Assembly: GCA_016932695.1 (NCBI GenBank)
Contig: JAFGCH010000081.1
Coordinates: forward strand, 15,404-79,403
DNA from: Acidimicrobiia bacterium
Lineage (GTDB): Bacteria; Actinomycetota; Acidimicrobiia; Spongiisociales; UBA11373
DNA: 64,000 nt
Direction of reading: 5' to 3'
Part shown: positions 16,166 to 44,458 of the stretch, one piece after another
Layout of the letters: every line of letters begins with the position of its first letter
Numbering within the stretch: position 1 is the first letter of the stretch
Notes under the pieces: generated by a model
What the model saw: only the letters and a program-made list of their open reading frames with translations
Database searches by the model: none
Told to the model about the DNA's origin: nothing
Translations under genes and position numbers: made by a program

Positions 16166-17202
16166 GAGATGCCTACGGCGGCGAGAGCGGAGCTTACGGT
16201 AGCCGTCGGCGCCATCTCCAGGCGCGGCCTCCCTATCACCTCCAGCACCACCATGCGCAGGCCCGCGCCGGAGCGTTTCTTGTCTTGCCCGATGAGACGG
16301 CGGGCCTCCGCACCGTCGAGTCCCGGGGCGGCCACCGGAAGGCCGAGGCTCGCGATCACCTCCCGCTGCCGGGCCTCCTCAGCGAAGCCGGCCAGTTCGG
16401 CCCCGGCCCGGCCGGCGGCCACCATACCCACCGCCACCGCTGCGCCGTGGGACAGGCCGCCGGCCACCTCCACGGCATGCCCGATGGTGTGCCCGTAGTT
16501 CAGGTGAGCCCGTTCCCCGTGGTCTCGCGGGTCGCGCCCCACGATCGCCGCCTTCACCGCCACCGCCCGCCGCACTACCTCCGCCAAGTCGGTATGAGTG
16601 CCGTCGCGCTCGAACATCGCCACCAGGCCGGGATCTCCCACCAGCCCTGCCTTCAGGGCCTCGGCCCAGCCCTCCCGCCGCAGATCCAGCGGCAGGCCGT
16701 CGAGCAGGTCCGCATCGACGATAACCCGAGAAGGGTGATGGAAGGCCCCGACCAGGTTCTTCGCCCCCAGGTTCAGCGCGGTCTTACCACCGATGGCGGC
16801 ATCTACGGCTCCCAGCAACGTAGTGGGCACCAGGATCGCCTCTACCCCCCGCAGGAAGGTGGCCGCCACGAACCCGGCGACGTCGGTCAACGCGCCTCCT
16901 CCCACCCCGACCACGGTGTCCTCCCGGGTCAGTCCCAGACCGGCGAGCCACGCGTAGGCTGCCGCCGCCACCTCGATGGTCTTGGCCGCCTCGCCGTCGG
17001 GCAGCACTCGCACCGCGGAGGCCATCCCCGCCGCCTGCAGCTCTCGAGCCAGGCGCCGGCTCAGGCGTGCCGGCTCCCCCGGCTGGCAGAAGAACGCGGC
17101 CCGGCGGCGCCCCGGGCGCTCCTCCACCACGAGGGACGCCGACAGCAGCCCCCGGCCTACCACCACGTCGGTCGCCCCGGCTACTCGCAGGACTTCCACC
17201 AC
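16162..17202 (-). CDS. aroB: 3-dehydroquinate synthase
   Basis: GGGALTDVAGFVAATFLRGV..ILVPTTLL..VDAAIGGKTALN and NYGHTIGHA.E are AroB motifs. Confidence 0.9.
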   Translation of the reverse strand: MVEVLRVAGATDVVVGRGLLSASLVVEERPGRRRAAFFCQPGEPARLSRRLARELQAAGMASAVRVLPDGEAAKTIEVAAAAYAWLAGLGLTREDTVVGVGGGALTDVAGFVAATFLRGVEAILVPTTLLGAVDAAIGGKTALNLGAKNLVGAFHHPSRVIVDADLLDGLPLDLRREGWAEALKAGLVGDPGLVAMFERDGTHTDLAEVVRRAVAVKAAIVGRDPRDHGERAHLNYGHTIGHAVEVAGGLSHGAAVAVGMVAAGRAGAELAGFAEEARQREVIASLGLPVAAPGLDGAEARRLIGQDKKRSGAGLRMVVLEVIGRPRLEMAPTATVSSALAAVGIS

Positions 17203-17687
17203 AGCACCACCTCGTCGGCCACTTCCTCGGGGCGTCGGTTCGCAGTGGCCACCTGCCGGTGGGCGGCTCCCCGATAGGCCGCTTCCCGGGCGGCCGCGAG
17301 ACTCCGCAAGCTGGGCCGCCCCTCGCCGGCCAGCAGGGGACGGCCGCCGCCGTCGCCCACGCGTTCCTCCAGGACCTCCGGCGGCGCCTCGAGCCAGACC
17401 ACCAGGCCGGTGCGCCGCAGCAGCGCTACGTTCTCCGGCGCCACCACGATCCCACCCCCGCAGGCCACCACCGCCGCGCTCCCGGCCGTTTCCACCAACG
17501 CCGCCGCCTCCCGCCGGCGGAAGCCCGCCTCCCCTTCTGTGGCGAATATCTCCGGCACAGAACGGCCGGCGGCCCCCGCCACCACCTCGTCCAGGTCCAC
17601 GAACGGCCTCCCCAAACGGGCCGCTACCAGCGGGCCGATCCGGGTCTTCCCCGCTCCCATCATTCCCACCAGCCAGAGAGTCGCCAT
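17181..17687 (-). CDS. aroK: Shikimate kinase
   Basis: LVGMMGAGKT.IG..LA..L...FVDLD is the P-loop NMP-kinase fold, and the position between aroC and aroB is conserved. Confidence 0.85.
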   Translation of the reverse strand: MATLWLVGMMGAGKTRIGPLVAARLGRPFVDLDEVVAGAAGRSVPEIFATEGEAGFRRREAAALVETAGSAAVVACGGGIVVAPENVALLRRTGLVVWLEAPPEVLEERVGDGGGRPLLAGEGRPSLRSLAAAREAAYRGAAHRQVATANRRPEEVADEVVLWWKSCE

Positions 17688-18835
17688 CAGAACCCGGCCA
17701 GGCGCTGCCGGTAGGCCTCTACCGCCCGAGCGAAGTCCGCGGCGGTATCTGCCCCGAACATGCGAGACATCTCGACGGCCAGCACCCAGGCCACCATGTG
17801 CTCGGCCACCACTGCGGCCGCGGGCACGGCGCAGACGTCGGAACGCTGCTCCGCGGCCGCTGCGGCCTGCTTGGTCACCACGTCCACACTGGTCACCGGC
17901 CGCCGCAGCGAAGACAGCGGCTTCATCGCCCCCCGCAGACGGATGACCTGGCCGTTGCTCATGCCCCCTTCGATGCCTCCCGCACGGTTGGTGGGCCGCT
18001 CGAACCCGCTCGCGCCGTAGGTGATCGCATCGTGGGCTGCGGAGCCCCGCCGGCCCGCCGCAGCAAACCCGTCGCCGATCTCTACCCCCTTGATTCCGGG
18101 GATCGACATCACCGCCGCGGCCAGGGCGGCATCCAGCCGCCGATCCCAGTGGACGTGGCTGCCCACCCCGGGCGGCACCCCGTAGGCCAGCACCTCCACC
18201 ACCCCGCCCAGAGTGTCGCCCTCACGCCGGGCCGCATCGATGGCGGCGGCCATGGCGGTCGCCGCCTGCGGATCCAAGCAGCGCACACCGGAACGATCCA
18301 CCTTGCCCCGGTCGCCGGCGCCGGGGACCCGCCCGTCGGCCGCTACCTCCCCGATGCCCACCACGTGGCCGATCACCCCCACCCCCGCCTCCGCCAGCAG
18401 TCGCTCGGCCAGGGCCCCCGCTACGGCGCGAGCCGCCGTCTCCCGCCCGGAGGCCCGCTCCAGCACGTCGCGGGCGTCGTGGGTGTCGTACTTGAGCATC
18501 CCGGCCAGGTCGGCATGCCCCGGCCGCGGCCCCGTGAGGGGCGCCGGCACGGGGCCGGGGACCGAGGACATGGCCGCCTCCCAACGGGGCCACTCCGTGT
18601 TGCGCACCACCACCGCCACCGGCCCCCCAAGGGTGCGACCCAGCCGCACCCCGCCCAGGATCTCGACCTCGTCGCGCTCCACCCGCATGCGCGGGCCGCG
18701 GCCGCGGCCCCGCCGCCTACGGGCGAGTTCTGCCGACACCATCTCGCCGGTCACCTCGAGGCCGGCCGGGAGCCCCTCCACGATGGCGACCAGGCCCGGG
18801 CCGTGTGACTCACCCGCAGTCAGGAAGCGCAGCAC
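17687..18835 (-). CDS. aroC: Chorismate synthase
   Basis: MLRFLTAGESHGPGLVAIVEGLPAG...GGRSSARETAARVAAG-like core; the full length aligns to AroC. Confidence 0.9.
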   Translation of the reverse strand: MLRFLTAGESHGPGLVAIVEGLPAGLEVTGEMVSAELARRRRGRGRGPRMRVERDEVEILGGVRLGRTLGGPVAVVVRNTEWPRWEAAMSSVPGPVPAPLTGPRPGHADLAGMLKYDTHDARDVLERASGRETAARAVAGALAERLLAEAGVGVIGHVVGIGEVAADGRVPGAGDRGKVDRSGVRCLDPQAATAMAAAIDAARREGDTLGGVVEVLAYGVPPGVGSHVHWDRRLDAALAAAVMSIPGIKGVEIGDGFAAAGRRGSAAHDAITYGASGFERPTNRAGGIEGGMSNGQVIRLRGAMKPLSSLRRPVTSVDVVTKQAAAAAEQRSDVCAVPAAAVVAEHMVAWVLAVEMSRMFGADTAADFARAVEAYRQRLAGF

Positions 18836-18866
18836 ACCGGCGATGGTACCCCCGCGCCGGGGAGCA

Positions 18867-19508
18867 CTACTTGATGATCGACTGCCCCACCGCCAGGGTG
18901 AACACGCTGTCGCGGTACATGAACACTCCGCTGCTGGTGGCCAGGCTGATCACCTTGAAGTCGGTGGCGAAGGTGTCCCCGACGCCGACGGTGTAGGTCT
19001 GGCCGTCCACGGTCAGCACCGCCTTCTTCACTCCGCCTTCGTCGCGGATCTCCAAGAGCGACACCCGCTTCCCGCTCGGCTGGTCGCCGGTGGTGCTGGT
19101 GGTGCTGCCTCCGGAGGTCGTGGAGGTAGAGGTGGAGCTGGTGGAGGACGTGGTGCCGCCGCCGGTCGTGCTGCTGGTGGAACCGCCGGTGGTACTCGTA
19201 GTGGAACCATCCCCGCCGGTCGTCGTGGAGCCGTCGGGGAGGGTGGTGCTCGTCGGGCTGGTGACCAGAGGAGCGAAGGGATCGCGCGGTTGAGCGACGC
19301 GGAAGCCCCCCGCCGCCGGAATCGTACCGGCGGAGCCGCTCGGGCCCGCCGTCCCCGGGTCCGGGGCCCCGGGCAGACGCCCGTCTCCTCCCAGGGAAAG
19401 CACTCCCGAGGAGGCCATCAACCACACCGAGGTCCCCGCCGTTCCCACCAGCAGCACGGCCACCAGGATCGCTACGAAAGTGCGCCGCAAGGTCCCGCGT
19501 CCCATGTC
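18867..19508 (-). CDS. PilP-like pilus assembly protein: N-terminal signal/anchor, RDPF motif, Ser/Thr/Gly-rich linker and C-terminal beta domain; the real start is the internal MGRGTLRR
   Basis: MGRGTLRRTFVAILVAVLLVG (TM), QPRDPFAPL (PilP-type motif), about 70 aa of S/T/G repeats, then a conserved-looking about 70-aa C-terminal domain. It sits immediately downstream of pilO. Confidence 0.5.
   Translation of the reverse strand, partial: DMGRGTLRRTFVAILVAVLLVGTAGTSVWLMASSGVLSLGGDGRLPGAPDPGTAGPSGSAGTIPAAGGFRVAQPRDPFAPLVTSPTSTTLPDGSTTTGGDGSTTSTTGGSTSSTTGGGTTSSTSSTSTSTTSGGSTTSTTGDQPSGKRVSLLEIRDEGGVKKAVLTVDGQTYTVGVGDTFATDFKVISLATSSGVFMYRDSVFTLAVGQSIIK
19090..19290 (-). repeat. Low-complexity coding repeat (Ser/Thr/Gly-rich linker of the PilP-like protein)
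   Basis: Degenerate repeats of ggt/gga/gtg...acc triplets on the plus strand encode TTSTTGGSTSSTTGGG... in the minus frame. Confidence 0.5.
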
Positions 19509-20187
19509 AGGCCTCCGCGCTCGGGCCGGTGGTCGGCGGCACGGTGGAAGGGACGATCGTCGTCTGCGCCTCCGGCGCCATCTCTTGCTCGCCCGTGCCC
19601 TCACCGGTGTTGCCGGCGCCCCCGTCGTCCGGGAGGGGTTCCAGCGGCACCAGGTCGGCGAGGGTGTACAGCCGCAAGCTGAGGCTCGCCGACAGCGTGG
19701 TCGCCCCGGTCTCATCCTGGCCCGACGACACGGCGATGGCGTCCACCCGCACCAGCCGATCCATGTCCATGATCCCGAAGAGGAAGCCCAGCACCTCGAA
19801 GAAGTCCCCGTCGATGGTGGTAGCCACCGTGATCTGCCGCAGCTCGGAACCGGTGATCGCCACCGGCATGGCCGGCGCCAGGTTCAATAGCTGCACTCCG
19901 GTGGTGTCACAGAGGGCATACACGTCGTCGATGAACTCATCGAGTCGGGGTTGCGCCGGGATCAGGCTCTCCATCTGCCCGATGCCGGCTAGGTACTCGA
20001 CTTCGGCGTCCCGGATGGCCTGCAGCTGGGTCACCTGGGCCCGCAGCGCGGCTTCCTGCTGCTGCGCCGCGTCCAGGTCGTCGCGCGCCTCGGCGATGCG
20101 GCCGTTGCGCGGCGAGATGAGGAAGAACCACCAGGCCACCGCCAGCACCAGCGCCAAAACCAAGGTGAGGATCACCCAGCGGCGCAT
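19507..20187 (-). CDS. pilO: Type IV pilus assembly protein PilO
   Basis: N-terminal TM (WVILTLVLALVLAVAWWFF), coiled-coil (LDAAQQQEAALRAQVTQLQAI), then a PilO-type globular domain. The pilM-pilN-pilO order matches. Confidence 0.65.
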   Translation of the reverse strand: MRRWVILTLVLALVLAVAWWFFLISPRNGRIAEARDDLDAAQQQEAALRAQVTQLQAIRDAEVEYLAGIGQMESLIPAQPRLDEFIDDVYALCDTTGVQLLNLAPAMPVAITGSELRQITVATTIDGDFFEVLGFLFGIMDMDRLVRVDAIAVSSGQDETGATTLSASLSLRLYTLADLVPLEPLPDDGGAGNTGEGTGEQEMAPEAQTTIVPSTVPPTTGPSAEA

Positions 20188-20188
20188 G

Positions 20189-20803
20189 TCAGGGCACCTC
20201 CGGGATCAGCTCCTGGGCGCGGTCGGTGACCGCCCCCGCAGTGAGCGCCGCCGAGGAGCTGAAGTTGACCACCACCTCGTCGCCGATGGCGCTCTCCGAA
20301 GCCATACTCACCCAGGGCCCGGTGACACCGGCGAACCCGCCCGCGCCCAGGGTGCGCAGCCATTCCGAAACGTCCGGGAACTCGAAGGCCACTCCGGTGA
20401 AGGCGACCTGGCCCACCACCCCGCCGATCTGGCCCTCGATGATGCTCCCGTTGAACGACTCCATCCACACCCGCTCGGGAAGAAGCCGGGAGAGGTCGTT
20501 GAGGAAGATGCCCCAGTCGACGTCGTTGGCCAGCGCTTCCTGCACCAAGCCCGCCTTCGAGCGAAACTCCGCCTGCAATGCGGCGGCCTCCGCCAGTGAG
20601 GCCACCTCCTGCTCCAGGCCGGCGTTGACCTCCTGCTGCAGCTCGACGTCGGCCCGCGCTGCCGAAACACGGGTGTTCCAGTAGAACACCCCGGCCACCA
20701 GCACGAGCACGTACGCGATGGCGGCGAGTATCAACAGCCCAATGAGCCGCCGACGGGTTCTCTCTTCGGCGACCTCGGGGGGAAGCAGGTTGATGGGGCG
20801 CAC
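20189..20803 (-). CDS. pilN: Type IV pilus assembly protein PilN
   Basis: MRPINLLPPEV...RR then a TM segment, which is the hallmark PilN N-terminus (INLLP). It is about 200 aa and lies between pilM and pilO. Confidence 0.7.
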   Translation of the reverse strand: MRPINLLPPEVAEERTRRRLIGLLILAAIAYVLVLVAGVFYWNTRVSAARADVELQQEVNAGLEQEVASLAEAAALQAEFRSKAGLVQEALANDVDWGIFLNDLSRLLPERVWMESFNGSIIEGQIGGVVGQVAFTGVAFEFPDVSEWLRTLGAGGFAGVTGPWVSMASESAIGDEVVVNFSSSAALTAGAVTDRAQELIPEVP

Positions 20804-20806
20804 GCG

Positions 20807-21919
20807 TCAGTCCTCCCGAGCCACGTGGGCGAAGCGATTGCCGGGTGGGACCACGTAGCTCCCCCACAACGCCAGGCCCACCGCCGCCGGCAGCACGGGC
20901 TGCAGGTCGAGCAGCTGCGATTCGGTCATGTGCACCCGACCCACACTGACGTGGTCCAGGACCCGGACCGGCTCCACGCGCGTGCCCAGCGCCCGCGCCA
21001 CCCGGTTGGCCAGATGGGGAAGCCGCGCCCCGTTCCCCGACACCAGCAGGCGCTCCAGCGAATGCTCCCCCGCCTGGGTCAGGTAGTAGTTCACCGAGCC
21101 GCGGATCTCCTCGATCAGGCCGTCGGCCGTGCGGGTGAGCAGCCGGCGCAGCGCCGCTTGCTCGTCGTCGCCTTCGGGCAGGCCGGAGGGCACCACTCCC
21201 GCCACTCGCTTCTTCTCCTCGGCGTCCTCCCGACTGAGCGACGCCCCGGCCATGAGCGCTTCGGTGAACTGGTTTCCCCCGGTGGGCAGGATCCGGACGA
21301 AGCGGGTGATACCGCCGCGCACGACGGCGATCTGGGACATAGATGCCCCGATATCCAGGATTCCTTGGGGCCCGTCACCCCCCAGGGTGAGATCCGCCCC
21401 GAACGCCGCCCGCACTAAGCCGAAGGTCTGCAGGTCGATCGAGAGCACTTGCAGCCCGACCTTGCGCGCCACCCCCACCAGGGACTCCACCATCTCGCGC
21501 TGGGCCGCCACCACCAGTATGGAAAGCATGAGGTCGCCGTCGGGAGTGCCGAACTCCTCGAGCGGCACGTAGTCGAGCAGCGCCTCCTCGACCGGGATCG
21601 GGATGGCGTCCTGGACCTGGTACGGCAGGGCCTCGAGCAGCTCCTCCTCCTCCAGGTGAGGCACGTCGACCTGCCGGACGATCACCCGCTGGTTGGCGAT
21701 GCCCACCACAACCCGCTTGCGCGGCAGGCGATGGCGCTTCCACAGCGCGCTCACTGCCTCGGTAACGGCGCCCTGATCGACGACGTCGCCGCCCTGGACC
21801 GCTCCCGGCGGCAGCGGCATCTCGACGAACCGGCGCAGCACCGGAGTGGGCTTGCCGGTTTCGACTACGGCGGCCCGCACCGCCTCCGAGCCAATGTCGA
21901 GGCCGACCGCGATCGGCAT
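20807..21919 (-). CDS. pilM: Type IV pilus assembly ATPase-like protein PilM (actin fold); the real start is the internal MPIAVGLDIG
   Basis: VGLDIGSEAVRAAVV..., ...ILDIGASMSQIAVV.GG, N.YL and LLVSGNGARLP are PilM/FtsA-like motifs. It is followed by pilN. Confidence 0.8.
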   Translation of the reverse strand: MPIAVGLDIGSEAVRAAVVETGKPTPVLRRFVEMPLPPGAVQGGDVVDQGAVTEAVSALWKRHRLPRKRVVVGIANQRVIVRQVDVPHLEEEELLEALPYQVQDAIPIPVEEALLDYVPLEEFGTPDGDLMLSILVVAAQREMVESLVGVARKVGLQVLSIDLQTFGLVRAAFGADLTLGGDGPQGILDIGASMSQIAVVRGGITRFVRILPTGGNQFTEALMAGASLSREDAEEKKRVAGVVPSGLPEGDDEQAALRRLLTRTADGLIEEIRGSVNYYLTQAGEHSLERLLVSGNGARLPHLANRVARALGTRVEPVRVLDHVSVGRVHMTESQLLDLQPVLPAAVGLALWGSYVVPPGNRFAHVARED

Positions 21920-22080
21920 CACTCCTCCGTTGTGGCCGCCCGGGGCGGCTCCTCGCTCGATCACACCGTGGTAACTACACGGGTGTCAGGCAAAAGGCTA
22001 CACAACGGACCGCGCGCCTCCAAGGATCTGGGCTGATCCTGCCGAGCGCGGGCCGCGCGAGGACCGCGCGCCTAAGGTGG

Positions 22081-22851
22081 TCAGCCCAGGTACCAGCCGG
22101 CGATGGTCTCCCCCCAAGCCAGGGCCAGCGCGGCGCCGACGACCATAGCCGGGCCGAAAGGGATCGCATCCTTGCGCCCGGCCCGCCGGGTGACGAGCAG
22201 GCCCGCCGCCACCAGCCCTCCTACGGCAAAGGCGGCGAACGCCCCCACCGCCAGCACGCCCCAGGATCGATAGGCCAGCACCGCCCCCAGGAGCAGGCCC
22301 AGTTTCACGTCGCCGAACCCGAAGCCGCCCCGCGCCGCCAGGGCCACCAGGAAGAGCAGGGCGAAGTACGCCGCCGCTCCCCCGGCGGAGCGCGCCCAGG
22401 CCATGGGTTCTCCGTCCAGGAAAGCCGCCGCCCCCAGCAGCACCAGCGTCACCGCCGCCCCCGGCAGCAGGATGCGATCGGGGATCCGCTTGACGTCGAG
22501 ATCCGTCAGCGTCAGGGCGATGGCGACTGCGGCCGCCCACCAAAACGCCGGCAAGGCCCACGACGGCCCGAGCAGAAGGGCCAGGCCGGCGAAGGCAGCC
22601 CCCGTGCCGGCTTCCACGAACGGATAGCGCACCGAGATGCCGCTCCCGCAATCGCGGCACCGGCCTCGCAGCAAGAGCCAGGACAGCACCGGGATGTTGT
22701 CCCGGGCCCGGATCTCATGGCCGCACGCCGGGCAAGCCGACCGGGGGCGCACCACCGACTTCCGCAGGGGGACGCGATAGGCGACCACGTTGACGAACGA
22801 CCCGGCCACCAGGCCGAGCACCGCACCCACGATTGCCAGCCAACCTGTCAC
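22081..22851 (-). CDS. pilD: Prepilin peptidase (A24 family)
   Basis: The Cys-rich N-terminal zinc module (CPACG...CRDCG) follows N-terminal TMs, with multi-pass membrane helices and conserved Asp positions. It aligns to PilD/TadV. Confidence 0.85.
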   Translation of the reverse strand: MTGWLAIVGAVLGLVAGSFVNVVAYRVPLRKSVVRPRSACPACGHEIRARDNIPVLSWLLLRGRCRDCGSGISVRYPFVEAGTGAAFAGLALLLGPSWALPAFWWAAAVAIALTLTDLDVKRIPDRILLPGAAVTLVLLGAAAFLDGEPMAWARSAGGAAAYFALLFLVALAARGGFGFGDVKLGLLLGAVLAYRSWGVLAVGAFAAFAVGGLVAAGLLVTRRAGRKDAIPFGPAMVVGAALALAWGETIAGWYLG

Positions 22852-22964: not shown

Positions 22965-23432
22965 TCAGAAGCCGCCCTGGTGGTACCCGGCGGGAATCAC
23001 CGCCGGGCAGTCGGCACCGGAGAGGTCCGTGGCCCCGTAGTGAGTTCCCAGTGCGGCGCTGTCCCAAATGGAGAAGACCCGTCCCGAAGCCGAGTCTCGC
23101 GTCAGGCACACGACCTGCGGGTCGGCGTCGTTCAGGTCCACGTACACCCCATCGGCCGGGTCCAGGCTCAGCCAGGAACCCGGGCGCACCGCCCGCAGAA
23201 CACCCCAATCGGCGGTGTAGGCCCCCTCCTCCAGCCACACCATCTTCTCCGCCAGCAGGATGTTGCGCAGATCGGTATGGGCGGCTCGGTCCTGGGCCGC
23301 GTGGCGAACGCCGAGGAAGTAGGGAATGGCCACGGCCAGCAGCACCGCCAGGATGGCCGCCACCATCATCAGCTCGATCAGGGTGAACCCCACATCACCC
23401 CTCGGCCGGTGTTTCACGAGACCCCTCCACAA
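22965..23432 (-). CDS. Type IV pilin (paralog 1)
   Basis: Class III signal ...RGDVG/FTLIELMMVAAILAVLLAVAIP, and a C-terminal disulfide-bonded region (C...C). Confidence 0.8.
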   Translation of the reverse strand: MWRGLVKHRPRGDVGFTLIELMMVAAILAVLLAVAIPYFLGVRHAAQDRAAHTDLRNILLAEKMVWLEEGAYTADWGVLRAVRPGSWLSLDPADGVYVDLNDADPQVVCLTRDSASGRVFSIWDSAALGTHYGATDLSGADCPAVIPAGYHQGGF

Positions 23433-23439
23433 GCGGGCT

Positions 23440-23465
23440 GGGGGCGGGCCGTCGGCCCGCCCCCA
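23440..23465 (-). terminator. Perfect 11-bp GC hairpin (GGGGGCGGGCC gac GGCCCGCCCCC) immediately 3' of pilin paralog 2
   Basis: Inverted repeat seen directly in the sequence. There is no U-tract, which is common for high-GC terminators. Confidence 0.45.
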
Positions 23466-23490
23466 GCAACTCGGTAGACGTTGGGTGTGC

Positions 23491-23955
23491 TTACCAGCCG
23501 CCCTGGACGTAGCCGGCCGGGGCAGCCGCCGGGCAGTCCGCGGCCGACAGGTCGGTGGCGCCGTAGAAGGTGCCCGCCGTCGCGCTCTCCCAGATGGAGA
23601 AGGTGCTCCCCGAATCGGAATCGCGCACCAGGCAGACGATGTCCGCGCTGGCGGCGTTCAGGTCCAGGAAGACACCGTCCGCCGGGTCGGCGGCGATCAC
23701 CGCGTTCGGCTCCAGAGCAGTGATGTCGCCCGCGGTCTGGGTGTAGTCGCCGTCTTCCAGCCAGAAGGCCTTCTCGGCGAGCAGCACGTTGCGGACCTCG
23801 CTCTGGGCCGACCGGTCCTGAGCGGACTTGCGGAAGCCGAGGAACGAAGGGATGGCAATGGCGATGAGGACTGCAATGATCATCACCACGACCATGAGCT
23901 CGATGAGCGTGAAGCCCTCGCTCCCGGCCAGCCGCTTGCGGATGGCCTTGGTCAT
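23491..23955 (-). CDS. Type IV pilin (paralog 2, candidate major pilin)
   Basis: MTKAIRKRLAGSEG/FTLIELMVVVMIIAVLIAIAIP, a strong SD (GAGGAGG) 8 nt upstream of the ATG, and a stable terminator hairpin downstream. Confidence 0.8.
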   Translation of the reverse strand: MTKAIRKRLAGSEGFTLIELMVVVMIIAVLIAIAIPSFLGFRKSAQDRSAQSEVRNVLLAEKAFWLEDGDYTQTAGDITALEPNAVIAADPADGVFLDLNAASADIVCLVRDSDSGSTFSIWESATAGTFYGATDLSAADCPAAAPAGYVQGGW

Positions 23956-24066
23956 CTTGGAAACCTCCTCAGGTTTCTCGGTCCCGGACCGGGGGTTCCC
24001 GATCCGCAGGCTTTATCGGCCGCGCCGCGACGCTTCTTGAGCGGGTTGCGCACCCCCGAACGCGCC

Positions 24067-24091
24067 GCAGCCGGGCTCCCGGCCCGGCTGC
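24067..24091 (-). terminator. GC-rich hairpin (GCAGCCGGGC ...GCCCGGCUGC) 3' of pilC and 5' of the pilin gene promoter region
   Basis: Inverted repeat seen in the sequence, with no U-tract. Confidence 0.35.
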
Positions 24092-24110
24092 GGTTGCCTC
24101 GATGCTCCGC

Positions 24111-25343
24111 TTACCGCTGGATCAGGTTGGCGATGCTGAACATCGGCAGATACAGCGAGATGAGGATGCCGCCCACGCCCACGCCCATCACCACGATCAG
24201 GAAGGGTTCGATGAGGCTGGTGAGGGCGTTCACCGAGTCGTCGACCTCCTGGTCGTAGAAGTCCGCCACCTTGGCCAGCATGGCGTCGAGGGCGCCAGTC
24301 TCCTCCCCCACCGCCATCATGTGGGTCACCATCGGGGGGAAGACCTCATGGCGCGCCAGAGGGCCGGCCAGCGACTCGCCTCGCTTCACCGACTCCTGCA
24401 CGTCCGCCAGGGCCTCGGAGACCACCGCGTTGCCCGCGGTGTCCGCCACGATGTCCAGCGCCTGGAGCACCGGCACCCCGGTCCGGCTCAACACCGACAT
24501 GGTGCGGGCGAAGCGGCTGATGGCGATCTTCTGCACCAGCTTGCCGAAGACGGGGAAGCGCAGCTTCAGGCGATCCCACTTGGCGCGACCCGCAGGAGTG
24601 CGGATCCAACGCTTGAAGCCCACGACCGTGCCGATGGTCAGCAACGCCAGCAGCCACCAGAACTTGGTCAGCATCCCCGAGAGGGTCATGAGCATCTGCG
24701 TCGGCGCCGGCAGGGTGCCCCCCAACTCGTCGTACATCCTCTTGAAGATCGGCACGATGAAAAGCAGCATCGCGCTCAGGATGAGCACGAGCAGCCCGAG
24801 GACCACCACCGGGTAGGCCATAGCCGACTTCACCTTGGAGCGCAGCCGCACCCCGGACTCCAGGGTGTCCGCCAGCCGGATCAGAGTCTCGTCGAGGGCG
24901 CCGCCCACCTCCCCCGCCTGCACCATGGCCACGTAGAGATGCCCGAAGACCTTCGGGTGGCTGGCCAGGCTGGCCGACAGACTGGACCCCTGCTCCACCC
25001 GGGTGCGGACGTCGCCGATCACCCCGGCCAGCGTGGGATTGCGGCTCTGCTCCTGCAGGACGGTGAGGGCGCGCACCAGGGTCAGCCCGGAGTTCACCAT
25101 CGTGGCCAGCTGACGGCTGAAGACCGCGACCTCCTTGGCCTTGACCTTCTTCTTCATCCCGGGGAGCTTGACCTCCTTGTCGAGGGTGCCCACCCGGCGC
25201 TCGGCGATCTTGAGGGGCACGAAGCCCTTGTCACGGAGGGTCTTGGCCACCGCAGCCGACGAGGCGGCCTCCATCTGGCCCGTCTGGACGCCGCCCGCCC
25301 GGTCGCGCACCCTGTACTCGAAGGTCATCGTGGGATTGCTCAC
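24111..25343 (-). CDS. pilC: Type IV pilus inner-membrane platform protein PilC (GspF family)
   Basis: 410 aa with two GspF repeats and 3-4 TMs; ...VNALTSLIEPFLIVVMGVGVGGILISLYLPMF... is the typical PilC C-terminus. Confidence 0.85.
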   Translation of the reverse strand: MSNPTMTFEYRVRDRAGGVQTGQMEAASSAAVAKTLRDKGFVPLKIAERRVGTLDKEVKLPGMKKKVKAKEVAVFSRQLATMVNSGLTLVRALTVLQEQSRNPTLAGVIGDVRTRVEQGSSLSASLASHPKVFGHLYVAMVQAGEVGGALDETLIRLADTLESGVRLRSKVKSAMAYPVVVLGLLVLILSAMLLFIVPIFKRMYDELGGTLPAPTQMLMTLSGMLTKFWWLLALLTIGTVVGFKRWIRTPAGRAKWDRLKLRFPVFGKLVQKIAISRFARTMSVLSRTGVPVLQALDIVADTAGNAVVSEALADVQESVKRGESLAGPLARHEVFPPMVTHMMAVGEETGALDAMLAKVADFYDQEVDDSVNALTSLIEPFLIVVMGVGVGGILISLYLPMFSIANLIQR

Positions 25344-26962
25344 AGCCTCCCCCTCCCCAGGAGATCCATCAGTTCTTCGGCATTCGAGGCCCGTTCTGTA
25401 GCCGCGGCCACCGAGATCTGGCCCGCCCGGACCAGATGGGCCAGCGACTGCTCCATGGTGTGCATGCCGTGCTTGCCCCCGGCCTGCATCGCGGTGCGGA
25501 TCTGGTGCACCTTGCCCTCCCGTATCAGGTTTCGCACCGCCGGGGTGGCCACCAGCACCTCCACCGCGGCCACTCGTCCCTTGCCGTTCATAGTCGGCAG
25601 CAGCTGCTGGCAGACGACACCCTGCAGCGACCCGGCCAGCTGCACCCGCACCTGCTGCTGCTGGTGGGAGGGGAACACATCGATCACCCGCTGCACCGTG
25701 CCCGGGGCGTCCTGGGTGTGCAGGGTGGCGAAGACCAGATGCCCGGTTTCAGCGGCGGTCAGGGCAGTGGCCATGGTCTCGAGGTCGCGCAGCTCGCCCA
25801 CCAGAATGACGTCGGGGTCCTGACGGAGGGCGTGCTTGAGGGCGCTGGCGAAACTCACCGTGTCCGAACCCACCTCGCGCTGGTTCACCACGGCCATCTT
25901 GTGGCGGTGCATGTACTCGATGGGATCCTCCACCGTCATCACGTGCACCGCTCGGGTCCGGTTGATCAGGTCGATCAGGGAAGCCAGCGTGGTGGACTTG
26001 CCCTGACCCGTGGCCCCCGTCACCAGCACCAGGCCCCGGCTCATGCGAGTGAACTCCGCCACCACCGGGGGCATACCCAGCTCTTCGAGAGACATGATGT
26101 GCTCCGGGAGGGCTCGCAGCACCGCCCCGACGGACCCGCGCTGGAAGTAGACGTTGACCCGGAAGCGGCCCCGCCCCGCCACCGGGTGGGAGCAGTCGAG
26201 TTCGCGCTTCTCCTCGAGTTCCTCACGCTGGCGTCCGCTCAAGATGCCGTAGATCAGGGTGCGGAGCGTGCCGGGCATCAGCCGCGCGTACCCCTCGATC
26301 GGCTGGATTTCGCCGTCGATCCGTCGCAACGGCGGTGACCCCGCGGTCAGGTGGAGATCAGAGGAGCCCGAGTCGAGCACCAGCTCGAGCAGCTGGTTCA
26401 GGTGGTATCCCGGGTCCTCTCCCTCAACCGGGGCATCGCCCAGCCGCAGTTCCGGGCTCTCCGAGCCGCGCCGGGCCGGACTGCCGTTGGCCGCCGCCGG
26501 CCGGACCGCCGAGCTCCCCGGCCCGTAGACCCGGGCCAGGACGGCCTCTAGGCCCGCCCGGGGTGCCAGCGCGGGCACCACCCGGCACCGGCTCAGCTTC
26601 TCCACCAGAGACAGCTTGGCCCGGTTCATGGGATCGGCCAGGGCGACCACCAGGCCGTCGGGCCCCTCGCGCCGCAGCGGCAGAGCTTGCTGCCCGGTGG
26701 CGGTGGCCGGGTCGAGGCGACCGAGCGCCTCGGCATCCGGCTCCCATCCGTTCGTAGGGTCGAAGTACTCGATACCCAAGCGCTCGGCGGCCACCCGAAG
26801 CACTTCCTCCGGGGGTACGCGTCCCTCCCCGAGCAGCAACCGCGTGGGGTGGGCCCCGGCGTCCTGCGCCCGAGCCACGATGTGCTCCAGGGCCGATGGG
26901 GCGAGCACGCCCCGGTCCACCAGGAGCTGCCCCAACTGCCGGAAGGCCTTCGGATCGGGCAT
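25340..26962 (-). CDS. pilT: PilT-type twitching/retraction ATPase with an extra N-terminal T2SE_N/MshEN-like domain; the real start is the internal MPDPKAF, and its ATG overlaps the pilB stop
   Basis: PilT core: DLHLTAGSPPLRRIDGE, RFRVNVYFQRGSVGAVLRALP, Walker A GATGQGKSTT, Walker B ILVGELRD and AVRNLIREGK, with no tetracysteine. The N-terminal about 190 aa resemble the GspE N-domain (LGQLLVDRGVL...ALEHIV..AQ). Confidence 0.8.
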   Translation of the reverse strand: MPDPKAFRQLGQLLVDRGVLAPSALEHIVARAQDAGAHPTRLLLGEGRVPPEEVLRVAAERLGIEYFDPTNGWEPDAEALGRLDPATATGQQALPLRREGPDGLVVALADPMNRAKLSLVEKLSRCRVVPALAPRAGLEAVLARVYGPGSSAVRPAAANGSPARRGSESPELRLGDAPVEGEDPGYHLNQLLELVLDSGSSDLHLTAGSPPLRRIDGEIQPIEGYARLMPGTLRTLIYGILSGRQREELEEKRELDCSHPVAGRGRFRVNVYFQRGSVGAVLRALPEHIMSLEELGMPPVVAEFTRMSRGLVLVTGATGQGKSTTLASLIDLINRTRAVHVMTVEDPIEYMHRHKMAVVNQREVGSDTVSFASALKHALRQDPDVILVGELRDLETMATALTAAETGHLVFATLHTQDAPGTVQRVIDVFPSHQQQQVRVQLAGSLQGVVCQQLLPTMNGKGRVAAVEVLVATPAVRNLIREGKVHQIRTAMQAGGKHGMHTMEQSLAHLVRAGQISVAAATERASNAEELMDLLGRGRL

Positions 26963-26964
26963 GC

Positions 26965-28635
26965 TCACACCACCACCCTCAGCACCTCTTCGAGCGTGGT
27001 CAGCCCGAGGCGCACCTTCTCCTGCCCGTCCCGGCGCAACGTGCGCATGCCCTGCTCGATCGCCACCTTCTTGATCTCGTCCGAGGGCCGGCGTTCCACC
27101 GCCATGCGCTGGATCTCCTCGGTGACGGTGAGCACCTCGTTGATGGACAGCCGCCCGCGGTAGCCGGTGCCCGAGCACACCTTGCAGCCCACCGCCTCGA
27201 AGATGGTGGCCGGCTCCCCTTCCGGCGGCAGCCCGATCTGCACCCGGACCTCCGAGGAGGCCTCGTGGGGGCGCCGGCAACGCTGGCAGAGCTTGCGCGC
27301 CAGCCGCTGCGCCACGATGCAGTCGAGGGCGGAGCTCACCAGGTACGCCTCCACCCCCATGTCGACCAGGCGGTTGATGGAAGAGGCCGCGTCGTTGGTG
27401 TGCAGCGTGGTGAGCACCAGGTGCCCGGTGAGGGCGGCTTCCACCGCGGTCTTGGCCGTCTCGGTGTCTCGTACCTCACCCACCAGCACGATGTCGGGAT
27501 CCGAGCGCAGAATCGACTTGAGGGCGGTGGCGAAGAGCAGGCCCGCCTTGCGGTTCACCTGCACCTGGGTGACCCCCGCCAGGCGGTACTCCACCGGGTC
27601 TTCCACCGTGATGATGTTGCGATCCGGCTTGTTGAGCACGTTGAGCGCGGCGTACAGGGTGGTGGTCTTGCCGGACCCCGTCGGCCCGGTGACCAGGATC
27701 GCCCCGTACGGCTTGGCCAGGGACTGGGAGAACCTGTCGAGCGCGTGGGGCATGAAGCCGAGGTCCGACAGCTGCAGGACCGCGTCGTCCTTGTCGAGGA
27801 CCCGGATGACCACCTTCTCCCCGTAGATGGTGGGCAGCGTCGCCACCCGAAGGTCGATCGGCCGGTTGTTCACCCGCAGGCCCACCCGGCCGTCCTGGGG
27901 CACCCGCCGCTCGGCGATGTCGAGGTCGGCCATGATCTTCACCCGGCTCACCACCGCTCCCGCCACCGAGCGCGGTGTGGTCATCACTTCGTGCAGCACC
28001 CCGTCGATACGAAACCTCACCCGCAGGTCCTTCTCCCCGGGTTCCAGGTGCAGGTCCGAAGCCCGTTCGTTGACCGCCCGGGTGATCAGCGTGTTGATCA
28101 GCTTGACCACGGGCGCCTCTTCGACGGCGGCCTCGATCTTGGACAGGTCTTCCACCGCCTCCCCGTCGGCCACCATGTCCGCCAAGTCGGCCACCGACTC
28201 GTCGTAGCGCGCCAGACGCCGGATGGCATCCAGGATGTCGCTCCGGGTGGCGATCCGGGGCGAGATGCGCATTCCCGTGATGGCGCGCAAATCGTCGACC
28301 ACCAGCACGTTGCTGGGGTCGGCCATGGCCACTACCAGGCGATCGTTCTCGAAACCGATGGGGATCACCACGTACCGGCGGGCCAGCGACTCCGGCAGCA
28401 GGGCCGCGGCGGCCGGGTCGATGGTGCTCTCGGCCAGGTTCACATACTCCAGGCCGGAGCGACGAGCCAGCACCCGCACGATGTCCGCTTCGGCGATGAT
28501 GTGCTCCTCGACCAGGATGCGGGTCAGGGGCAGGCCCGATTCGGCCTGTACCGCCGTGGCCCGTTCCAGGTCGCGTCGGGTCAGCAGGCCTTCATCGAGC
28601 AGCAACGACCCGATGTGCTCGGCATCTGCAGGCAC
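26965..28635 (-). CDS. pilB: Type IV pilus assembly (extension) ATPase PilB/GspE family
   Basis: N-terminal T2SE_N domain, Walker A GPTGSGKTTTLYA, and the tetracysteine CQRCRRP...CKVCSGTG. It is 556 aa. Confidence 0.9.
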   Translation of the reverse strand: MPADAEHIGSLLLDEGLLTRRDLERATAVQAESGLPLTRILVEEHIIAEADIVRVLARRSGLEYVNLAESTIDPAAAALLPESLARRYVVIPIGFENDRLVVAMADPSNVLVVDDLRAITGMRISPRIATRSDILDAIRRLARYDESVADLADMVADGEAVEDLSKIEAAVEEAPVVKLINTLITRAVNERASDLHLEPGEKDLRVRFRIDGVLHEVMTTPRSVAGAVVSRVKIMADLDIAERRVPQDGRVGLRVNNRPIDLRVATLPTIYGEKVVIRVLDKDDAVLQLSDLGFMPHALDRFSQSLAKPYGAILVTGPTGSGKTTTLYAALNVLNKPDRNIITVEDPVEYRLAGVTQVQVNRKAGLLFATALKSILRSDPDIVLVGEVRDTETAKTAVEAALTGHLVLTTLHTNDAASSINRLVDMGVEAYLVSSALDCIVAQRLARKLCQRCRRPHEASSEVRVQIGLPPEGEPATIFEAVGCKVCSGTGYRGRLSINEVLTVTEEIQRMAVERRPSDEIKKVAIEQGMRTLRRDGQEKVRLGLTTLEEVLRVVV

Positions 28636-40268: not shown

Positions 40269-40802
40269 TCACGGCACGTTCCTCAACGCGACTTCGAAGT
40301 CCAGCGTGCGCGCCCCGTCGCCGGGCCCGGCCACCCCCACGACTAGGTGCACAAAGGCCCGGGTGATCTGCGCCGGCAGCGTGCTGTCGTAGGAAAAGCG
40401 GGACTCGGCGCCCGAGAGGCCCCAGGCTTCCACCCGGCCTGCAGAGCTCCCCACCGTCCGCACGAGAGCGCCGCTCGAGTTGACCGACCACGTCACGACC
40501 TCCGCGGCAGGCATGACCGCGTCCCACTCGTAGTCGATCCAAACGCTGAAAGAGGCCGGGCCCGCGGCGGTGAACCGCCGCGCCTCCCTGACGTCCTTGG
40601 CCAACCGGCTCCGGGCGTCGCGCACCGCTTCCTGTGCGGCATCGTCGGCAGCTTGCACCTGCTCTACCCGGGTTGCTCCGACGAAGACGGAGACCATGGT
40701 GGTGGCGACCAGGGCCATCCCGGCCATAGCCAAGGCGAGTTCGACGAGAGTCAGCCCGGCAGCCTCCCGAGGGAAGAGGCGAATCCGGCGATTGAAACGC
40801 AT
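40269..40802 (-). CDS. Minor pilin / pseudopilin (prepilin-type N-terminal cleavage-methylation domain)
   Basis: ...PREAAG/LTLVELALAMAGMALVATTMVSVFV is a class III signal with Glu at +5. Confidence 0.6.
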   Translation of the reverse strand: MRFNRRIRLFPREAAGLTLVELALAMAGMALVATTMVSVFVGATRVEQVQAADDAAQEAVRDARSRLAKDVREARRFTAAGPASFSVWIDYEWDAVMPAAEVVTWSVNSSGALVRTVGSSAGRVEAWGLSGAESRFSYDSTLPAQITRAFVHLVVGVAGPGDGARTLDFEVALRNVP

Positions 40803-40886
40803 GGCGGCTTTCCGGTCGGAGCCGAGGTATTCATCGACCGGGAATGCACCCGGCTTGAACACCTGTGGCATTCGATTGGGCAACTC

Positions 40887-42218
40887 TCAGTTGCAGGTGC
40901 TCTCCGCTACCGGCAGCGGGCGCAGGCCGTCGAGTAGCGTTGCCGTCGGCAGAAGCCCGGCCGGGTACATCACGCTCCCCGCCGTCACCGCCACCCGACC
41001 CAGTCCGGCATCACCGCCCGCCACCAGGGCTCCCCGCCAGGGGTTGGTCCCCGACAGGGTGACACCCCCGTAGGGGGCATAGGCCACCCCCTGCCAGGCC
41101 CCATCCGTGCCGCCCAGGAGGACGAGAGCGCTCGAGGAGCTGCCGAAACCCACCACCCCACCCTGGGTGGCCGTCGCCAGTCGGTACTGCGCCCCGGGGC
41201 GGAACTCCACCACAGTATCCGAGACCAAGGACGCGGCATTCGAGTACACCGTAGAGCCGTCGCGCAGTCGAATCCCCTGGGTGGCGTACACCGGGCCAGC
41301 GCCGTCGATCGTCACCCCCCCGTAGAAGTCGATGCTCCCCGAGACGTACATGGGGGCGCTGATGGTGACGTTGGTGAACGACTGGTTCCCCGACAGCACC
41401 TGGCCCGTCTGCGCCGCTGCCCGCAGAGCGGAGCGCCAGTCCTCGATGGTCATGGTGTCGGGTAGGACGACCACCACGCCTCCGTTCTGCTCGATCACGC
41501 CGCCGACGTTGCTCGGCAACACGGTCGCCGTCCCCCCGGCCCGCACATCGCCGTCCACCACCGAGGTGCCGTCGGAGTAGTTGAAGTTCGTGTGCACCGA
41601 GGCCAGGTGCGAGGTACCTGGGGAGGTGAGAGTGGAGGCACCGCCGGTGAGCGCGGCATCGCCCGCGGCCACCACCGCGGCGTCGGGGAACACCACCGCA
41701 CCGGTGACGATGGCCCCTCCGGCCGACACGTCGGAGATCACAGTGGAAGCCTGGAAGGAACCCGGCGCCCCGTCTTCCTCCCAAGTCACCAGCACCAGCA
41801 CCCGTCGCAGGTCGGCGGTGAGGCGGGTGACGTAAGCCCAAGTGGTGAACGTGACCCCGCCGGCGGTCGCCACCGACTTGGGGGTCATCAGCCCTCCCTC
41901 GCACACCAGGAGGCTTTCGTCCCCCGGCAACCCGGCTTCCTGGCCGAGCAAGGCCTCGGCAACGGGATCGATGAGGGGCGCCGCAGCATCCACCGACGTC
42001 ATCGCCAGCGCGTTCCAGCTGAGCGCCCGAGCCTGCTCCATCCGCCCCACCAGGAGCGCGGTGGCTTCCTGGCGTAACCGGCTGTCTCGCGAGCTGCCGA
42101 TCACCGACCGCAGCGTGCCGGTGATCGCCGCTACCAGCACCGCGGCGAGCACGGACGCCACTACCAGCTCGATCAGGGAGAACCCGGATTCATCGCGGAT
42201 GCGCAAGGGCCGCCTCAT
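40887..42218 (-). CDS. Large (443 aa) prepilin-like minor pilin
   Basis: MRRPLRIRDESG/FSLIELVVASVLAAVLVAAI is a class III signal. The remainder is a Gly/Thr/Val-rich beta-repeat region. Confidence 0.6.
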   Translation of the reverse strand: MRRPLRIRDESGFSLIELVVASVLAAVLVAAITGTLRSVIGSSRDSRLRQEATALLVGRMEQARALSWNALAMTSVDAAAPLIDPVAEALLGQEAGLPGDESLLVCEGGLMTPKSVATAGGVTFTTWAYVTRLTADLRRVLVLVTWEEDGAPGSFQASTVISDVSAGGAIVTGAVVFPDAAVVAAGDAALTGGASTLTSPGTSHLASVHTNFNYSDGTSVVDGDVRAGGTATVLPSNVGGVIEQNGGVVVVLPDTMTIEDWRSALRAAAQTGQVLSGNQSFTNVTISAPMYVSGSIDFYGGVTIDGAGPVYATQGIRLRDGSTVYSNAASLVSDTVVEFRPGAQYRLATATQGGVVGFGSSSSALVLLGGTDGAWQGVAYAPYGGVTLSGTNPWRGALVAGGDAGLGRVAVTAGSVMYPAGLLPTATLLDGLRPLPVAESTCN

Positions 42219-42225
42219 GATCGCC

Positions 42226-43809: not shown

Positions 43810-44458
43810 TGCGCAGGTTCACCTCCACCAGCAACTCGAAGGGCCCCTCAATCGTGGACACCCCCGGAGGGGCCGCCCGCAGGACGATGGTGACGATGGG
43901 GAAGTTGCACGCCGTCGCCCCCCCGCAGGACGGCACCGTGGTGCGCTCCAGCGGACTACCCGCCCACTTGCTGCCGGCGAACATGGCGGGCGTCGCCGCC
44001 ACCCGCTCCAGCAGTACCACGTCGTTGAAGGGCAAGGTCAGGTAGACCCAATTCGGCGCCGAAGCCGGGTCGGCGGCATAGCGGCGCACCCGCAACTGGC
44101 AGTACTCCCCGGCGCAGGCGGTGCGCTCGTACACGATCTTCTCGGGCCCGGGGAAGTCGTAACGGTCCGAGTAGAAGGTCAGGGCACTCTCGGCCAGGGA
44201 GGCGATGGCCGACATCGTGATTTGCGGGGCCTCGGCCGCTCGTAGTTCGGCGGCCATCTCGGTGACCACTTCCCTGGCCTGCACCTGCAGATCGGCCCGC
44301 TGCCGGGCGTCGGAGGCGTTCTGCCCCACCGCGTTGACTACCAGCACTACTGCACCCAGCACGAGGGTCGACAGGAAGGTGGCCACTCCCATCTCGACCA
44401 GGGTGAACCCCTGCTCGCCGCGAGCGGCACGCCGCAGGCGGGCGATCACGGGCACCAC
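43802..44458 (-). CDS. PilW-like minor pilin
   Basis: ...RGEQG/FTLVEMGVATFLSTLVLGAVVLVV is a class III signal, and the protein is 218 aa. Confidence 0.6.
   Translation of the reverse strand: MVPVIARLRRAARGEQGFTLVEMGVATFLSTLVLGAVVLVVNAVGQNASDARQRADLQVQAREVVTEMAAELRAAEAPQITMSAIASLAESALTFYSDRYDFPGPEKIVYERTACAGEYCQLRVRRYAADPASAPNWVYLTLPFNDVVLLERVAATPAMFAGSKWAGSPLERTTVPSCGGATACNFPIVTIVLRAAPPGVSTIEGPFELLVEVNLRNA

Follow-up and report, generated by a model that had tools for sequence, protein, structure and literature searches.

Tandem type IVa pilin genes separated by a conserved stem-loop in an uncultured Acidimicrobiia: a probable major pilin and a putative accessory paralog

The 64,000-nucleotide stretch of an Acidimicrobiia bacterium genome analyzed here (contig JAFGCH010000081.1, positions 15,404 to 79,403, referred to below as the window) has a GC content of 71% and carries on its minus strand a compact type IVa pilus cluster with the gene order pilB-pilT-pilC-pilA1-pilA2-pilD-pilMNO. 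As a preliminary description of this DNA had reported, two pilin genes lie head to tail within this cluster, and both encode the G|FTLIELM motif. We consider it probable, at roughly 60%, that pilA1 is an expression unit of its own that encodes the major pilin and that pilA2 encodes an accessory pilin expressed by read-through. The features at the pilin genes are as follows, in the order of transcription.

24065 to 24093, minus strand: GC-rich hairpin with arms at 24065 to 24076 and 24082 to 24093 (12-bp stem, 5-nucleotide loop), 18 nucleotides past the pilC stop codon
24014 to 24042, minus strand: promoter-like motif GCTCAAG-N15-GCCGATA (equal to CTCAAG-N17-CGATAA) 5′ of pilA1, found by alignment
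23986 to 24005, minus strand: stem-loop GGAUCGGG-AACC-CCCGGUCC in the 5′ untranslated region (5′ UTR) of pilA1, present in the minimum free energy (MFE) and centroid folds
23964 to 23970, minus strand: putative ribosome-binding site GAGGAGG of pilA1, 8 nucleotides 5′ of the ATG
23491 to 23955, minus strand: pilA1, type IVa prepilin of 154 amino acids (PF07963, TIGR02532)
23437 to 23467, minus strand: stem-loop 3′ of pilA1 with a GC-rich stem of about 14 bp, located 23 nucleotides past the pilA1 stop codon and 19 nucleotides before the pilA2 start
23424 to 23428, minus strand: putative ribosome-binding site GGAGG of pilA2, 6 nucleotides before GTG 23417
22965 to 23417, minus strand: pilA2, type IVa prepilin paralog of 150 amino acids (PF07963, TIGR02532)

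Both products match two prepilin profiles, with PF07963 scoring 27.1 bits for PilA1 and 21.5 bits for PilA2 (cut-off, 21.2 bits) and TIGR02532 scoring 28.3 and 23.5 bits, respectively (cut-off, 16.3 bits). PilA1 has 154 amino acids, a 14-residue leader, and the cysteines Cys108/Cys141, and it is 100% identical to a protein from an Acidimicrobiia metagenome-assembled genome. The downstream gene had been placed with its start at TTG 23432, which merely marks the longest open reading frame (ORF). GTG 23417 is the likelier start, as it is preceded by GGAGG and was also called independently on a Logan contig of identical sequence (L001, 2316 to 2768), and it gives a protein of 150 amino acids with a 10-residue leader. 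The mature forms of PilA1 and PilA2 are both 140 residues long, both have the canonical helix with F1, E5, and P22, and both pilins are acidic (pI of 4.05 and 4.63). The two are clearly paralogous, aligning by BLASTP with an E value of 8e−67 and 60% identity across 149 residues without a single gap.

The AlphaFold2 model of PilA2 has a predicted local distance difference test (pLDDT) score of 90 and is composed of a long helix (residues 13 to 64), a short helix (residues 71 to 77), and four strands, which corresponds to the lollipop fold of type IV pilins. A Foldseek search of this model against the PDB returned a sole confident match, to the major pilin PilA4 of Thermus thermophilus (6xxd), with a probability of 1.00, an E value of 3.8e−4, template modeling (TM) scores of 0.58/0.67, and 25% identity. 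The sequence profile of the PilA1 family matches the same 6xxd chain over residues 15 to 139, and PilA1 probably shares the fold, judging from its 60% ungapped identity with PilA2.

The preliminary description had portrayed the pair as having diverged N-terminal halves and nearly identical C termini. This contrast was overstated, since the mature proteins are 65% identical over residues 1 to 55, 43% over residues 56 to 85, and 67% over residues 86 to 140. With finer partitions, the identities are 67% (1 to 30), 64% (31 to 55), 43% (56 to 85), 60% (86 to 110), and 73% (111 to 140), and the C-terminal stretch that had been quoted has 35 of 48 residues in common by hand count. At the DNA level, a repeat finder detected two blocks at a spacing of 526 nucleotides, with the 5′ halves 71% and the 3′ halves 73% identical. 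The sole markedly diverged part is the central loop region, residues 56 to 85.

Relatives were collected by scanning metagenome contigs with an alignment of the C-terminal domain, which yielded 42 loci; a scan of genome contigs with the GFTLIELM pattern gave, among the matches listed, mostly distant pilins from other phyla. Every locus that was long enough has the order pilB-pilT-pilC-pilA1-[slot]-pilD-pilM-pilN-pilO, followed by a gene for a 212-amino-acid protein and aroC. The slot between pilA1 and pilD varies in its occupant among these loci, as follows.

Slot with a pilA2-clade pilin: the window (identical contig L001), L081, L084, L088, L089, L090, and L095, and the more distant L083, L115, and L116
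Slot with an unrelated pilin, termed C-type: L097, L101, L102, L103, L105, L110/L111, L112, and L121
Slot with both pilin types: L104, which has three pilins
Slot empty: L091, L093, L094, L098, L099, L106, L108/L109, and L119

The question of whether relatives carry one or two copies, which the preliminary description had raised, is thus answered differently by lineage: two copies are found in some, whereas in about 8 no pilin other than pilA1 lies between pilC and pilD. The C-type pilins are approximately 140 amino acids long and have a C-terminal cysteine pair of their own within a C terminus of the form ...GRHTC...MTLA.C.G..W. The window holds no ortholog of them, and their only similarity there is a distant one to pilA1 and pilA2.

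A neighbor-joining tree groups the pilA1 orthologs tightly in one clade and the pilA2-type sequences in a monophyletic sister clade with longer branches, with the C-type pilins placed far outside both. PilA1 has more than 120 database clusters at 75% identity or higher, and only 29 clusters are orthologous to PilA2, at 64 to 99% identity. Together, the tree and the cluster counts indicate that the pilin duplication is old and was retained in a subclade. The pilA2-clade pilins have conserved histidines at the motifs AAH, GTHYG, and GYHQGGF and contain about 3 histidines per protein on average, versus 0.2 in the pilA1 clade.

Across L081 to L121, PilA1 matches PilB and PilM in conservation (75 to 97% identity), whereas PilD, PilN, and PilO at the same distances fall well below it (43 to 63%). 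Between L094 and the window, for example, the identities are 75% for PilA1, 77% for PilB, 79% for PilM, 63% for PilD, 52% for PilN, and 43% for PilO. Well-studied type IVa pili usually show the reverse pattern.

Rates of nonsynonymous (dN) and synonymous (dS) substitution were compared for pairs among six genomes that carry both pilins. The dN/dS ratio is approximately 0.2 for both genes, ranging from 0.11 to 0.37 for pilA1 and from 0.16 to 0.33 for pilA2 (pairs with dS up to 0.97), and this indicates that both are under purifying selection. In the same genome pairs, the dN of pilA1 is about half that of pilA2 and its dS is 2- to 3-fold lower. A pilA2 that is a decaying, unexpressed duplicate would be in line with its faster evolution, its absence from many relatives, its GC content at third codon positions (GC3), which is the lowest in the cluster, and a codon bias among the weakest there. 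Such decay is nevertheless highly improbable given the constrained dN/dS of pilA2, its confident predicted fold, and the intact frame, G−1/F1/E5 residues, both cysteines, and ribosome-binding site that are kept in the 29 ortholog clusters.

The pilS copies of Neisseria are promoterless and 5′ truncated and act as donors by gene conversion. The tandem pair resembles pilE/pilS in having more than one pilin-related sequence near the expressed gene, and the preliminary description had offered a substrate for recombination as one possible role of the downstream copy, which could in principle pass variant sequence to the expressed gene through the shared C-terminal region. A role as a donor for antigenic variation is extremely improbable here. 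The longest identical run between pilA1 and pilA2 is 13 nucleotides in the window and 13 to 17 nucleotides in the genomes other than L084, and the window genes have about 0.5 synonymous differences per site everywhere (0.56 in the N-terminal, 0.58 in the central, and 0.50 in the C-terminal part). Since synonymous divergence is saturated even at the C terminus, the similarity of the proteins there points to purifying selection on a shared module. Moreover, nucleotide identity between the paralogs is the same within a genome as between genomes, at 0.723 versus 0.727 for the N-terminal part, 0.524 versus 0.534 for the central part, and 0.705 versus 0.691 ± 0.028 for the C-terminal part. The two genes therefore do not evolve in concert, recent gene conversion is excluded, and the pair is a poor substrate for recombination. 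Their clades are reciprocally monophyletic, and paralog-specific conserved residues are evident in the alignment. Unlike a pilS copy, pilA2 is complete: its start codon is preceded by a ribosome-binding site, it encodes a leader and the whole N-terminal helix, and it is under selection and without conversion; neither of the two defining features of the Neisseria system that were tested is present. In L084 (390 to 1340), a 32-nucleotide identical run is shared by the C-terminal parts of the two pilin genes; it speaks for a donor role and may reflect a short conversion event specific to that lineage.

The region 5′ of pilA1 contains several conserved elements. In an alignment of 29 related upstream regions, both blocks of the promoter-like motif are kept at constant spacing, and AGGAGG is kept in nearly all. 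The motif has a single match in the 64-kb window, that in front of pilA1. A scan with the sigma-70 consensus found no promoter-like site at this motif or before pilA2, and it is the position and conservation of the motif that suggest a promoter role. No regulon sharing it could be proposed, as the motif is absent before the second pilin-like gene cluster described below and elsewhere in the window. The stem-loop in the 5′ UTR keeps its position in relatives while its sequence differs, as judged by eye from the alignment. The strong Shine-Dalgarno sequence ascribed to the upstream copy is present as GAGGAGG, although it does not distinguish the two genes, because pilA2 also has a good site.

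Both GC-rich hairpins of the preliminary description exist, at 24065 to 24093 and at 23437 to 23467, but they flank pilA1 rather than insulate the second gene, and the region after pilA2 shows no comparable structure (z score of −0.6). The first of them is part of the MFE fold, lacks a U-tract, and is found, among the relatives, in the closer ones only; it likely marks the end of the pilBTC transcript.

Related loci have, approximately 10 to 90 nucleotides 5′ of the promoter-like motif, tandem repeats with a period of 7 nucleotides in 3 to 9 copies (L091, L093, L097, L098, L100, L103, L105, L110/L111, and L119). The repeat unit changes by lineage (GTTTCCA, GTCTGGC, TTGCTAC, GCCAATT, GCGAATT, TCCAAGG, TCGCCCG, or CGCTTTC), and no such repeats occur in the window between 23956 and 24110. 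Possibly they act as a slipped-strand contingency element, or they form an array of binding sites through which the major pilin is controlled.

Codon usage separates the two pilin genes. The bias of pilA1 is the strongest in the cluster, with a GC3 of 0.92, a frequency of C at third positions (C3) of 0.565, and an effective number of codons (Nc) of 30.7, compared with a GC3 of 0.853, a C3 of 0.42, and an Nc of 35.7 for pilA2. The assignment of the upstream copy as the highly expressed major pilin is supported by these sequence-based indications, namely, the conserved 5′ signals, the conserved 3′ stem-loop described next, the codon bias, the lower dS, the lineages in which pilA1 is the sole pilin, and a conservation on a par with that of PilB and PilM.

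The 3′ stem-loop of pilA1 has perfect arms of 15 nucleotides each (23437 to 23451 and 23453 to 23467) and is the longest perfect inverted repeat with a short spacer in the 64-kb window; its region folds with a z score of −4.6 relative to shuffled sequences. Stems of 11 to 17 bp are found in nearly all of 35 related loci, usually 20 to 33 nucleotides past the pilA1 stop codon and regardless of which gene comes next. For 32 distinct sequences, RNAalifold predicted 15 pairs, with compensatory double changes in 11 of them. An origin of the hairpin as a repeated element was considered and rejected, since its core has 4 matches in the window against 2.6 expected and its position is kept with compensatory changes. 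No significant Rfam family match was obtained for the hairpins.

In fimbrial operons, such as that of papA, a stable attenuating stem-loop right behind the major subunit gene would lead to an excess of major-subunit mRNA over that of downstream genes. The papA system belongs to the chaperone-usher class, unlike the pilus described here, and for the pilA1 hairpin, which is without a U-tract, a comparable function is suggested by conservation and covariation. Of the features of an intrinsic terminator, the GC-rich hairpin is present and the U-tract of 7 to 9 nucleotides is absent; the tail of the hairpin reads CCGCUUGUGG, the tails in relatives have 1 to 6 T among the first 10 nucleotides, and a terminator scan found no canonical intrinsic terminator in the region scanned. 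In vitro, mycobacterial RNA polymerase depends on a U-tract to terminate intrinsically (PMC3993855). We infer from these two observations that the hairpin is most plausibly a leaky terminator, a stabilizer of the 3′ end, or both.

The 11 loci whose second pilin belongs to the pilA2 clade all share one layout, in which the pilA1 stop codon is followed by about 23 nucleotides, the hairpin, 5 to 10 nucleotides, the ribosome-binding site, 5 to 8 nucleotides, and the start codon. The promoter-like motif of pilA1 does not recur before pilA2, as searched throughout the window. With its start only 19 nucleotides past the hairpin, pilA2 lacks the space for a separate promoter, and its expression probably depends on read-through. 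Furthermore, the pilA2 ribosome-binding site is predicted to be partly paired with sequence 5′ of the hairpin, and in several lineages its predicted partner is a pyrimidine-rich sequence just 5′ of that hairpin. Such pairing could add translational control but offers only a lead, since high pairing is expected in RNA with 71% GC.

If read-through at this hairpin is high, as the missing U-tract would allow (PMC3993855), the two pilins could be cotranscribed at similar levels and assembled in comparable amounts into one heteropolymeric fiber, as PilE1 and PilE2 are in the monoderm Streptococcus sanguinis, at a ratio of 4:3 (PMC6916266). The equal mature length of 140 residues, the ungapped alignment, the F1/E5/P22 helix, the ribosome-binding site of each gene, and the similar dN/dS values would all accommodate such a fiber. 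We regard it as unlikely nonetheless, because the strongly conserved hairpin lies exactly between pilA1 and pilA2, because codon bias is stronger and dS lower in pilA1, and because pilA1 stands alone in about 8 lineages and is paired with an unrelated pilin in about 7. The lineages without pilA2 indicate that PilA2 is dispensable for the fiber.

Alternatively, PilA2 could be a second major pilin that forms a distinct filament under certain conditions, with read-through of the hairpin as the switch. The closest solved relative would fit such a role, since Thermus thermophilus, the source of PilA4, makes two filament types in a temperature-dependent ratio (PMC12024867). The paralog-specific residues, including the approximately 3 histidines of each pilA2-clade pilin, point to some specialization, and the predicted pairing of the pilA2 ribosome-binding site could make expression conditional. 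This is a quite unlikely alternative, as PilA1 and PilA2, with 60% identity and the same size, are far more alike than PilA4 and PilA5, and such a pair would not be expected to build filaments of different architecture. The pairing is weak evidence in a sequence with 71% GC, and no regulator of a conditional PilA2 filament was identified.

The reading that we prefer, with pilA1 as the major unit and pilA2 as its read-through accessory, would account for these observations as follows. The pilin gene of a monoderm Acidimicrobiia type IVa cluster would have been duplicated long ago. One copy, pilA1, would now be an expression unit of its own, with a promoter-like element, a 5′ UTR stem-loop, a consensus ribosome-binding site, and a 3′ stem-loop, and the other, pilA2, would be a functional but faster-evolving accessory pilin with its own ribosome-binding site and leader. 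The second gene would be transcribed only by polymerases that pass the stem-loop, or its message would be the less stable 3′ portion left by transcript processing, and either route would yield less PilA2 than PilA1. After cleavage by PilD, both pilins would enter one PilB/PilC/PilMNO machine, and PilA2 would be incorporated at low stoichiometry or in particular conditions, altering the surface of the fiber. The earlier suggestion that the downstream copy is a variant or alternate pilin is plausible, and we judge the best, and a probable, assignment for PilA2 to be that of a subunit made at a lower level, either accessory or alternative.

Several points weigh against this reading. The hairpin lacks a U-tract and may terminate poorly, in which case the two genes could be cotranscribed almost equally. 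A promoter for pilA2 may lie within the pilA1 coding sequence, where consensus scans are of little use because the promoters of this phylum are poorly defined. The lower dS of pilA1 could stem in part from constraints other than expression level, and the pilA1:pilA2 ratio in this uncultured organism is deduced purely from its genes. The frequencies of slot occupancy come from a biased sample, as the loci were retrieved by PilA1 C-terminal patterns. Finally, the AlphaFold2 model of PilA1 itself is poor (pLDDT of 50), having been built from a shallow alignment of close sequences.

A further and tentative idea, which we hold to be rather unlikely, is that the gap between pilA1 and pilD is a site at which accessory pilins are swapped and that the covarying stem-loop, together with the pairing that hides the ribosome-binding site, sets or switches the ratio of major to accessory pilin. 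If true, the region would be a defined cis-regulatory module that governs which pilins make up the fiber, in a phylum whose type IVa pili await experimental study.

The machinery for such a pilus was found by profile matches for PilB, PilT, a single PilC, and PilM/N/O, in the following arrangement around the pilin genes.

26965 to 28635, minus strand: pilB, extension ATPase (TIGR02538 PilB, 630 bits)
About 25340 to 26440, minus strand: pilT, retraction ATPase (TIGR01420 pilT_fam, 482 bits; cut-off, 319 bits)
24111 to 25343, minus strand: pilC, platform protein, encoded by the final gene of the pilB-pilT-pilC block (Pfam T2SSF, E value of 4e−68)
22081 to 22851, minus strand: pilD, prepilin peptidase (Pfam A24_N_bact, E value of 7e−34, and Peptidase_A24)
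19507 to 21964, minus strand: pilM-pilN-pilO, alignment subcomplex (Pfam PilM_2, PilN, and PilO)
18867 to 19505, minus strand: 212-amino-acid Ser/Thr-rich protein (weak PilP-like match)
Downstream of the pilus cluster: aroC, aroK-like and aroB-like ORFs, and an M24 peptidase

The PilB score of 630 bits is slightly under the equivalog cut-off of TIGR02538 (675.65 bits). PilD, adjoining the pilin slot, would cleave both pilins. No secretin gene was found in the cluster, which fits the expectation for a monoderm. The N terminus of PilB contains an MshE-like cyclic-di-GMP-binding domain (NF053729, 43 bits; cut-off, 38 bits), and cyclic di-GMP may control pilus extension. Directly 3′ of pilMNO, aroC and ORFs that resemble aroK and aroB (17181 to 19505, minus strand) are kept in all related loci, a neighborhood that resembles the pilMNOPQ-aroK-aroB linkage of Proteobacteria. 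A second pilin-like gene cluster lies at 40269 to 46014 on the minus strand and encodes proteins of 443 and 218 amino acids with prepilin motifs, a 204-amino-acid protein with G|LTLVEL, a 527-amino-acid protein without a family match, and a 522-amino-acid protein with CarboxypepD_reg and Big_1 domains; it is adjoined by relA/spoT and secDF. Its pilin-like genes probably encode minor pilins or a tip complex of the same pilus.

The arrangement can be compared with three characterized systems that have more than one major-type pilin. In S. sanguinis, both PilE1 and PilE2 are abundant in the heteropolymeric pili (PMC6916266), and the locus is similar in that complete prepilin genes lie head to tail in a compact monoderm PilB/T/C/D/MNO cluster without a secretin, and coassembly of both pilins by one machine is plausible here as well. 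The locus described here is distinct in that a conserved hairpin lies between the pilin genes, which also differ in codon bias and dS, and in that the second gene is often absent from relatives. The hairpin, the gap in codon bias and dS, and the relatives without pilA2 together argue for unequal roles of the two pilins. In Thermus, one machine handles more than one major pilin and assembles wide pili from PilA4 and narrow pili from PilA5 (PMC12024867). PilA4 is the nearest solved structure by both sequence profile and fold, although at 25% identity, and the Thermus pilins are far more dissimilar to each other than the pair described here, which has equal length and 60% identity. In Xylella fastidiosa, knockouts of the paralogous genes pilA1, pilA2, and pilA3 have different and partly opposite effects, which was read as neofunctionalization (PMC9956873). 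Both organisms have paralogous genes resembling those of major pilins, with nonequivalent roles known for those of Xylella, a diderm proteobacterium that also differs in regulation.

Pilin paralogs that lie in tandem and have unequal roles are thus already known from S. sanguinis, Xylella, and Thermus, and in this respect the arrangement is an ordinary one. According to a 2019 review, the actinobacterial pili studied to date are all of the Tad/type IVc kind (PMC6916266), and the present cluster adds a record of a complete type IVa locus from an uncultured Acidimicrobiia. It also indicates that a putative major pilin can match the motor ATPases in conservation while the adjoining slot varies, which is mildly unusual. 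The stem-loop between the genes for the putative major and accessory pilins, backed by covariation, would offer a testable case for the control of subunit ratio.

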